Assembly: GCF_006345805.1 (NCBI RefSeq)
Contig: NC_043000.1
Span: 42,346,001-42,410,000, forward strand
Source of the DNA: Octopus sinensis
Taxonomy: Eukaryota
Direction of reading: 5' to 3'
Length of the DNA: 64,000 bases
The position numbers were made by a program, and so were the translations under genes. The notes beneath the pieces are model-generated. The model searched no databases. It was not told where the DNA came from and saw nothing but the letters and a program-made list of their open reading frames with translations. Below are positions 46,367 to 47,590 of the stretch, piece by piece (within the stretch, counting starts at the first letter, position 1; every line of letters starts with the position of its first letter).

Positions 46367-46547
46367 ATATATATATATATATGTTTTGGCTACACGCGGG
46401 TGGGAAGGGGCTGTTGACACAATCGTTTCATTCACAAATTGAATTCGGTGATACCAGTTGCGGGTTCTAGCTCGCTCTGATACTGAGTGGAGTTGGTGCC
46501 TTCTGGTATCTCAAAATTCAATATATAATCATTTATGATTATAGTAT

Positions 46548-46661
46548 TCTACGCTGAAGAGAAAAGAAGTTTCGGTAAGATAGAATTATTTATTATTTAA
46601 TATTTAATATTTAATTCGTATGCTTTCCTTAAAACTTGATTTCGAAACGTACGTCCGTGGA
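46548..46661 (+). ncRNA. Type I hammerhead ribozyme with extended stem II, copy 1
   Basis: UCUACG-CUGAAGA-GAAAAGAAGUUU(~59 nt)AAACUUGAUUUC-GAAA-CGUACG-UC-CGUGGA. All core nucleotides present; predicted cleavage after C46655. Confidence 0.75.
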
Positions 46662-47147
46662 TAACTAAAAAAATGTATGATAGATTGCAGTCAATTAATT
46701 CTCTCTTACCTGTTTGTGCCTTCAAATGCTGTTTTTACTGAGATCTCCCTTTTTAGTAGAAGAAATAGCTATAACCCTTTGACTGCTATTTCTAAATTCG
46801 GTATGTGGTAAGGCAACTCGTTGCTAAACCCTTATTGCTTAGTATTACTTAAATTTTCCTCGAATGAGGCTTTTACATGCCGAAGACTACTTGGTGTAAT
46901 TGATAATTTTTCCAAATTAATTAATTTCACCCTTCATTATTACGGATAACCATATTTTATCTCAGTAGATGACCACAGCATCTTGTTTTGGCTACACGCG
47001 GGTGGGAGGGGCTGTTGACACAATCGTTTCATTCACAAATTGAATTCGGTGATACCAGTTGCGGGTTCTAGCTCGCTCTGATACTGAGTGGAGTTGGTGC
47101 CTTCTGGTATCTCAAAATTCAATATATAATCATTATGATTATAGTAT

Positions 47148-47261
47148 TCTACGCTGAAGAGAAAAGAAGTTTCGGTAAGATAGAATTATTTATTATTTAA
47201 TATTTAATATTTAATTCGTATGCTTTCCTTAAAACTTGATTTCGAAACGTACGTCCGTGGA
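47148..47261 (+). ncRNA. Type I hammerhead ribozyme with extended stem II, copy 2
   Basis: Identical to copy 1; predicted cleavage after C47255. Confidence 0.75.
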
Positions 47262-47546
47262 TAACTAAAAAAATGTATGATAGATTGCAGTCAATTAATT
47301 CTCTCTTACCTGTTTGTGCCTTCCAAATGCTGTTTTTACTGAGATCTCCCTTTTTAGTAGAAGAAATAGCTATAACCCTTGACTGCTATTTCTAAATTCG
47401 GTATGTGGTAAGGCAACTCGTTGCTAAACCCTTATTGCTTAGTATTACTTAAATTTTCCTCGAATGAGGCTTTTACATGCCGAAGACTACTTGGTGTAAT
47501 TGATAATTTTTCCAAATTAATTAATTTCACCCTTCATTATTACGGA

Positions 47547-47590
<44 letters not shown>

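Follow-up and report, generated by a model that had tools for sequence, protein, structure and literature searches.

Organization of the locus

The element lies on the forward strand of a 64,000-nucleotide stretch of Octopus sinensis DNA (contig NC_043000.1; hereafter the window, whose numbering is used throughout), and it is a tandem of two near-identical units, separated by a short linker and set in a (TA)n microsatellite, with the following parts:

46366–46381, no strand: left (TA)n target microsatellite, defined by sequence
46382–46949, + strand: unit 1, 568 bp, non-coding, defined by comparison of the two units
46950–46983, + strand: linker, 34 bp, found only between the units and likely to be the ‘tail’ of a Penelope-like element (PLE), judged by the tail length given in the available parts of PMC8557442 and PMC11167929
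46984–47549, + strand: unit 2, 566 bp, not followed by the linker, defined by comparison of the two units
47551–47587, no strand: right (TA)n target microsatellite, defined by sequence

Both the coordinates and the anatomy (two near-identical units, a 34-nt linker and (TA)n flanks) are as given in the original prediction. The two units differ by four single-base indels, each in a short base run, and by zero substitutions. Unit and linker together have a GC content of 34.6%, and the claimed absence of an ORF is borne out in that the longest ATG-started frame in the element encodes 44 aa. No second copy of the unit was found within the window. A local duplication of 190 bp is found at 45356–45539 and 46178–46375, the second copy of which stops at the (TA)n target of the element.

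A high-copy family in public sequencing runs

The unit was found in 20 of 24 listed sequencing runs (9 organism codes, 11 studies). Four of these, designated X2, X5, X15 and X17, were examined in detail, all of them as contigs, and runs with a low share of the unit were left out; X15 and X17 were taken to be RNA by guess, as no listed run that contains the unit is recorded as RNA. Contigs matching the unit numbered 2,320 in X2 and 1,378 in X5, with a summed depth of 0.24–1.3 million in X2 and of up to 0.5 million in X5. The element is therefore one member of a dispersed, very high-copy family, in line with the proposal of a non-coding, retrozyme-like repeat, and the joint that leads from the end of the linker back to the start of the unit (46983 to 46382) was present in all four runs, at a depth of 40,346 in X2. 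This joint steps back 602 positions, so that the family has a period of about 602; the spacing of exactly 600 nt that had been claimed holds for the cut sites of this copy, but is a peculiarity of its indels.

The presence of the head-to-tail junction in four runs means that it is not an assembly quirk. It has to be weighed against the idea that the assembly is wrong in showing a tandem at this locus, in favour of which it can be said that short-run indels, of the kind typical of long-read error, are the only differences between the units. A plain false duplication would not, however, produce a linker that occurs only once, between the units, and with the junction in every run examined, the chance of such an error at this locus is close to negligible.

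Both units carry a private allele, 46697A, which was found in X2 at a depth of 38 out of 572,098 and at zero depth in X5 and in both probable RNA runs, X15 and X17. That the two units share it indicates that both stem from one template, and implies that this template was copied either by more-than-unit copying or by local duplication. If a depth of 38 roughly corresponds to one locus, the family would comprise thousands of units (the ratio, about 15,000, is inflated because contigs overlap) and junctions numbering of the order of one thousand, both being rough estimates since sequencing depth is no copy number. The private allele and the zero substitutions agree with the claim that the element is young as far as this insertion is concerned, but the family as a whole has many common variants. 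In X15 and X17 further copies run into (TA)n near 46845, and no copy ending with the 34-bp linker was among the rows listed from the four runs. Raised depth and divergent loose ends were seen at 46740–46930 in X2, X5 and X17, with a motif around 46801–46816 kept, which suggests that related families have this segment in common.

Two type I hammerhead motifs

Each unit contains one complete hammerhead motif of type I:

46548–46661, + strand: hammerhead 1, with stem I at 46548–53/46656–61, core at 46554–60 and 46644–47, and a predicted cut after 46655
47148–47261, + strand: hammerhead 2, the same as hammerhead 1, with a predicted cut after 47255

Both have a 6-bp stem I that includes one G-U pair, the core segment CUGAAGA, a G10.1-C11.1 pair, GAAA and the triplet GUC, and in both stem III is an 8-nt palindrome. 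The type I core (C3–A9, G12–A14, A15.1–U16.1 and H17) is complete and is accompanied by three stems, of which stem III becomes stable only in the dimer; in the predicted fold a small internal loop lies directly beyond the 6-bp stem I. Every part of the intact hammerheads that had been described earlier (stem I, core, palindromic stem III and GUC) was thus found in both units, and the predicted cut sites agree, with H17 at 46655 and 47255 and the cuts 600 nt apart.

The occurrence of the motif in the element exceeds chance. A descriptor that allowed a stem II of up to 120 nt was used to scan both strands, and it matched both hammerheads of the element and one further site in the real window, against 0 of 200 dinucleotide-shuffled windows (both strands). 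No hammerhead was found on the minus strand of the element. Rfam gave no hammerhead match to the element, either at the gathering score or at E values of up to 5, which is in line with the claim that descriptor searches with short loop limits would miss the long stem II; an abundant, intact hammerhead can evidently escape Rfam, and the numbers of animal hammerheads may therefore be counted too low. Exact motif scans of metagenome, viral and prokaryote collections gave 0 matches, and among 22 core-pattern matches in metagenome and viral contigs there were none with both stem I and stem II of at least 4 bp. Elsewhere in the window, at 5204–5263 (+), there is a type I-like motif with a 6-bp stem I, an A-U pair at 10.1–11.1 and an AUA triplet, which may be real given that the descriptor found nothing in 200 shuffles; the motif lies in an arm of a palindromic, MITE-like element of 520 bp that is 91% self-complementary (4892–5412).

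The long stem II

The feature that makes these hammerheads unusual in outline is their second stem:

46561–46643, + strand: stem II, 83 nt, made up of 4 bp, a 2×2 purine internal loop and an imperfect AU-rich hairpin

From the core outwards it is predicted to consist of 4 bp, an A-A/G-G internal loop, 6 bp and the imperfect AU-rich arm, with 27–29 bp in 83 nt and a terminal loop of 9 nt. The stretch that had been read as a 59-nt AU-rich loop is instead predicted to be paired, as part of this hairpin, and the AG/GA apposition noted in stem II is present but does not form pairs, its bases being opposed as A-A and G-G mismatches. The canonical arrangement, in which a short helix II is capped by terminal loop 2, is absent, and after 4 bp the 2×2 internal loop is found in place of that loop. 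As the 6-bp stem I and the 4-bp proximal part of stem II have the canonical spacing (helix lengths of 6 and 4 bp in the available part of Cervera and de la Pena, PMC4209133), the 2×2 loop may replace loop 2 and, on this structural model, may stand in for it in the tertiary contact.

The apex of stem II is a 7-nt repeat (46587–46615), and a 7-nt deletion at the apex is present in all four runs examined, so that slippage may have helped the stem to grow. No deletion joint that would yield a short stem II was listed among the 2,320 contigs of X2 and the 1,378 of X5, and for this reason the long arm looks to be family-wide. A one-off insertion of 70 nt into a short stem II, suggested by TTTCG repeats 70 nt apart (46570/46640), was considered and set aside because of the same lack of a deletion joint in the X2 and X5 contigs; it may nevertheless be ancient history. 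The hypothetical short hairpin would be unstable (+1.2 kcal/mol).

Predicted folding of monomer and dimer

Three further features emerged from secondary structure prediction:

46647–46654, + strand: palindromic stem III, with its twin at 47247–47254 as predicted partner
46443–46521, + strand: stable predicted hairpin (z −5.7 for 46440–46525)
46934–46972, + strand: weak predicted hairpin (−5.5 kcal/mol)

The best fold of the tandem is a double hammerhead that is joined via the paired palindromes. In the fold of the whole tandem, stem III pairs between the units with probabilities of 0.82–0.98 and the swapped arms of stem I with 0.89–0.96, whereas in a single copy stem III reaches a pair probability no higher than 0.04; the proposal that the hammerhead works as a dimer is thus supported at the level of predicted pairing. 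The monomer is itself strongly folded (z −8.45, with 0 of 100 shuffles as stable), and a second permutation of it gave z −5.8 in sense vs −2.8 in antisense orientation (30 shuffles each). At the weak hairpin the 5′ arm stops exactly at the 3′ end of the unit (46949) and the linker supplies the loop and the 3′ arm, so that the unit ends where the stem of this hairpin meets its loop.

Variation across the family

Variable sites numbered 54, of which 40 were listed; 25 of the listed sites were classed as DNA-level and 15 as RNA-only (<2% in X2), the borderline sites 46446 and 46614 being assigned by their values in X5. Fifteen of the 25 listed DNA-level variants are unpaired in the predicted fold, four keep their pair, two make up one compensated pair and four break a pair, against 11.5 pair-breaking variants expected (P 0.00025); with the majority-allele fold, 3 of 24 listed variants break a pair against 9.7 expected. 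A fold that carries all 25 listed alleles comes to −157.3, compared with −138.0 ± 7.6 for 60 random sets. Common variants therefore spare the predicted stems across the whole 602 nt. The depletion of pair-breaking variants is equally strong on the antisense fold and hence does not show polarity. Within stem I one variant converts the G-U pair into A-U, and none of the 25 falls in the 19 positions of core and stem III, where about 0.8 would be expected and zero is expected about half the time. The listed variants avoid the predicted stems and are absent from the core, and covariation amounts to the single pair 46455/46505 (C-G to U-A, at 38% and 43% in X2), which is unphased and alone gives P 0.2.

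These data bear on a reading in which the hammerhead is a passenger, that is, in which the element is a repeat derived from a PLE pseudo-LTR and amplified through linear RNA or as satellite-like DNA, with a slow or idle ribozyme and with RNA that comes from host read-through only. The sparing of stems by common variants (with the all-allele fold of −157.3), a core that is intact in both units and a 3′ end placed at a stem–loop boundary all argue against it. In its favour, most animal dimers tested were inactive according to the available parts of the literature, in which eight of nine Xenopus dimers did not cleave, and the presence of seven T stretches at least four long speaks against a Pol III monomer.

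Evidence from probable RNA

In X17, which is RNA by guess and comes from a different sample than X2, A>G or T>C changes account for 14 of the 15 listed RNA-only sites, as against 2 of the 25 listed DNA-level sites (Fisher P 7e-8), and several loose ends in this run differ from the unit by runs of such changes. The presence of both types of change in probable RNA points to transcription of both strands, and looks like A-to-I editing of both. Hyper-editing in octopus is exceptional, and its usual cause is the presence of inverted repeat copies in pre-mRNA, as far as the available part of PMC5625713 goes. The editing-like changes fit read-through from host transcripts equally well, and together with the hyper-edited loose ends they lend weight to the passenger reading. 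RNA-like contigs cover the whole ring, including junction and cut site, and span the junction at 0.91 of the depth at the unit start, a pattern that circles and uncut multimers fit alike; since the junction is also abundant in DNA, tandem arrays are able to explain this near-full share, which again favours a passenger. Taking both sides together, an idle or slow hammerhead of this kind is considered unlikely, if worth keeping in mind.

The T>C changes that accompany A>G in X17, along with the strong pairing of the monomer, could also be taken as signs of a viroid-like circle that replicates from RNA to RNA with a minus-strand intermediate. Inverted copies of abundant repeats in pre-mRNA yield the same signature, though, in an animal with exceptional hyper-editing (PMC5625713, available part), and the minus strand carries no recognizable hammerhead, which makes such a replicon extremely improbable.

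Splicing was weighed in the same contigs. A 5′ splice site at 46575, in stem II, would be joined to 46756/46759, so that the ribozyme would lose its 3′ half, and a second intron would extend between 46801/46808 and 46965/46968 in the linker, ending just before an ATG at 46969 as do the 5′-UTR introns of PLEs. Donor-like and acceptor-like sites do exist at these positions by rough scoring, both downstream donors have common variants at +3, A>G changes of a kind that splice sites tolerate, and in Drosophila Penelope the end of an intron abuts helix I (PMC4209133, part available). Against this, neither probable RNA run has such a joint listed, although contigs can reveal what is present rather than what is missing; in X15 one contig continues without splicing across the acceptors in the linker and the donor at 46575, and X17 is evenly covered, so that these introns are judged very unlikely.

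Comparison with known elements

The octopus family resembles the metazoan non-LTR retrozymes, in so far as these are described in the available part of PMC7229834 (which includes examples from mussels), in having one type I hammerhead per head-to-tail unit, a non-coding sequence of low GC (0.346, below the 45–50% limit for retrozymes), a self-paired predicted monomer, a palindromic stem III and a high copy number. It differs from them in the size of its unit (about 602 vs 150–450 bp), in a stem II that measures 83 nt and lacks a terminal loop 2 close to the core, and in its fixed (TA)n-flanked ends and tail-like linker. Li, Clavereau and Pollet 2026 (bioRxiv 10.64898/2026.07.22.740005) surveyed 35 genomes, with zero molluscs, using canonical and minimal descriptors and regarded retrozymes as derivatives of PLE pseudo-LTRs; in the part of that preprint available, complete hammerheads in a dimer define an ‘active’ element, a description that applies here, and 602 bp lies inside their range of 51–972 bp. 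Unlike for their retrozymes, no pseudo-LTR homologue of the octopus family was found.

With PLE pseudo-LTRs (PMC4209133, PMC11167929 and PMC8557442, each available in part) the element has in common its tandem layout, a probable counterpart of their optional extension of 30–40 bp and an AT-rich or (TA)n target, but it lacks an ORF for reverse transcriptase or endonuclease. PLE hammerheads are of the dimer type and, in the same available parts, have an enlarged helix II of 6–8 bp; helix II is several times longer here, and the octopus hammerheads lack an extra base between A9 and G10.1. The ‘half core’ of octopus Naiads, as far as these sources present it, has its core halves arranged differently and is not homologous by eye. 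Hence long stem II, unit size and tail-like linker set the octopus family apart from the examples compared, within the material available on them. The literature consulted held no account of an octopus retrozyme or of a long natural stem II; the Zenodo repeat library of O. vulgaris and the bioRxiv supplements may list the family under another label. A minimal hammerhead of PLE type, with an extra A in the core, a 6-bp stem II and GAAAC GU U, is found at 41384–41430 (+) in a different repeat of the window, and is likewise missed by Rfam.

Probable mobilization by a Penelope-like element

Taken together, the locus is probably a single insertion from a high-copy family of non-coding repeats, about 602 bp long, that have a complete hammerhead motif in each unit, a non-LTR retrozyme that is likely to be mobilized by a PLE. 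A two-unit transcript would fold into a double hammerhead whose halves are joined by the ACGUACGU palindrome, and cuts after each GUC would set free a strongly paired monomer about 600 nt in length. The reverse transcriptase/endonuclease of a PLE would then nick the (TA)n target and copy circular or multimeric RNA for more than one unit. Copying would begin at either of two sites that lie 34 nt from each other, and this would account for a linker that is present between the units and missing at the 3′ end. What is known of PLEs is compatible with these steps, as in the available part of PMC11167929 the enzyme nicks AT-rich DNA and the tail is optional, 30–40 bp long and located between two internal start sites for reverse transcription in a stem-loop; in the same source the hammerhead of an anole PLE depended on protein, and insertion in vitro did not require the ribozyme. 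Microsatellites are favoured by PLEs and (TA)n by octopus Naiads, whilst cephalopod Naiads have long been inactive (Craig et al., PMC8557442, available part), and 30 recently active Penelope families are given for O. vulgaris in the part of PMC13282606 available.

The label of a non-autonomous, PLE-mobilized element is favoured by the PLE-type ends and by the (TA)n on both sides of the insertion, such elements being expected in AT-rich or microsatellite DNA; the reverse transcriptase and GIY-YIG ORF of an autonomous PLE is absent from the element, and no autonomous partner was found. A tblastn search of 150 PLE endonuclease relatives against the element gave nothing significant (best E 0.07), and neither a search of the supplement of Craig et al., as available, with eight short motifs nor a comparison with the octopus Naiads by eye gave a convincing match. 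A link to Naiad_Obim/Ovul was discarded, as only an 11-mer is common to both and was picked after the fact.

A more far-reaching version, in which an active hammerhead with 2×2 loop and long stem II gives rise to thousands of copies of a 602-nt circle in octopods through rolling-circle reverse transcription by a PLE from two starts 34 nt apart, is put forward tentatively, as a possibility on the unlikely side. If true, the family would be the first representative of retrozymes with a long stem II, a class that searches by descriptor or with Rfam overlook, and would offer a direct handle on how PLEs mobilize retrozymes. PLEs are credited with moving animal retrozymes, and the evidence so far, in the sources as available, consists of co-occurrence and similarity to pseudo-LTRs; with its sharp ends and tail-sized linker, the octopus family makes the PLE link testable by genome-wide mapping of ends. 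The type of element is itself already known, and nothing points to a function for the host.

Other elements in the window

A C-terminal endonuclease relic of the GIY-YIG type is found at 6804–7300 (+), adjoining (TA)n; it is probably Neptune-like, by its motifs. A word-based protein search with this relic gave nothing; HMMER did find relatives, two of which, each of 720 aa, have the domain at the C-terminus. Five long relatives were not recognized by Pfam, so that their PLE label rests on sequence motifs.

At 52096–53046 (+) a stop-free frame of 316 aa with a zf-RVT domain represents the relic of a non-LTR retrotransposon, the best species-named match of which is from Argonauta hians (59% identity; one of eight matches was named). 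The window also contains a tRNA-like copy (15130–15202, −), a copy of U6 snRNA with an altered 3′ end (58362–58468, −) and a tandem of SINE-like units of 184–207 bp each (59275–60367); the SINEs of the window are presumably of octopus type.
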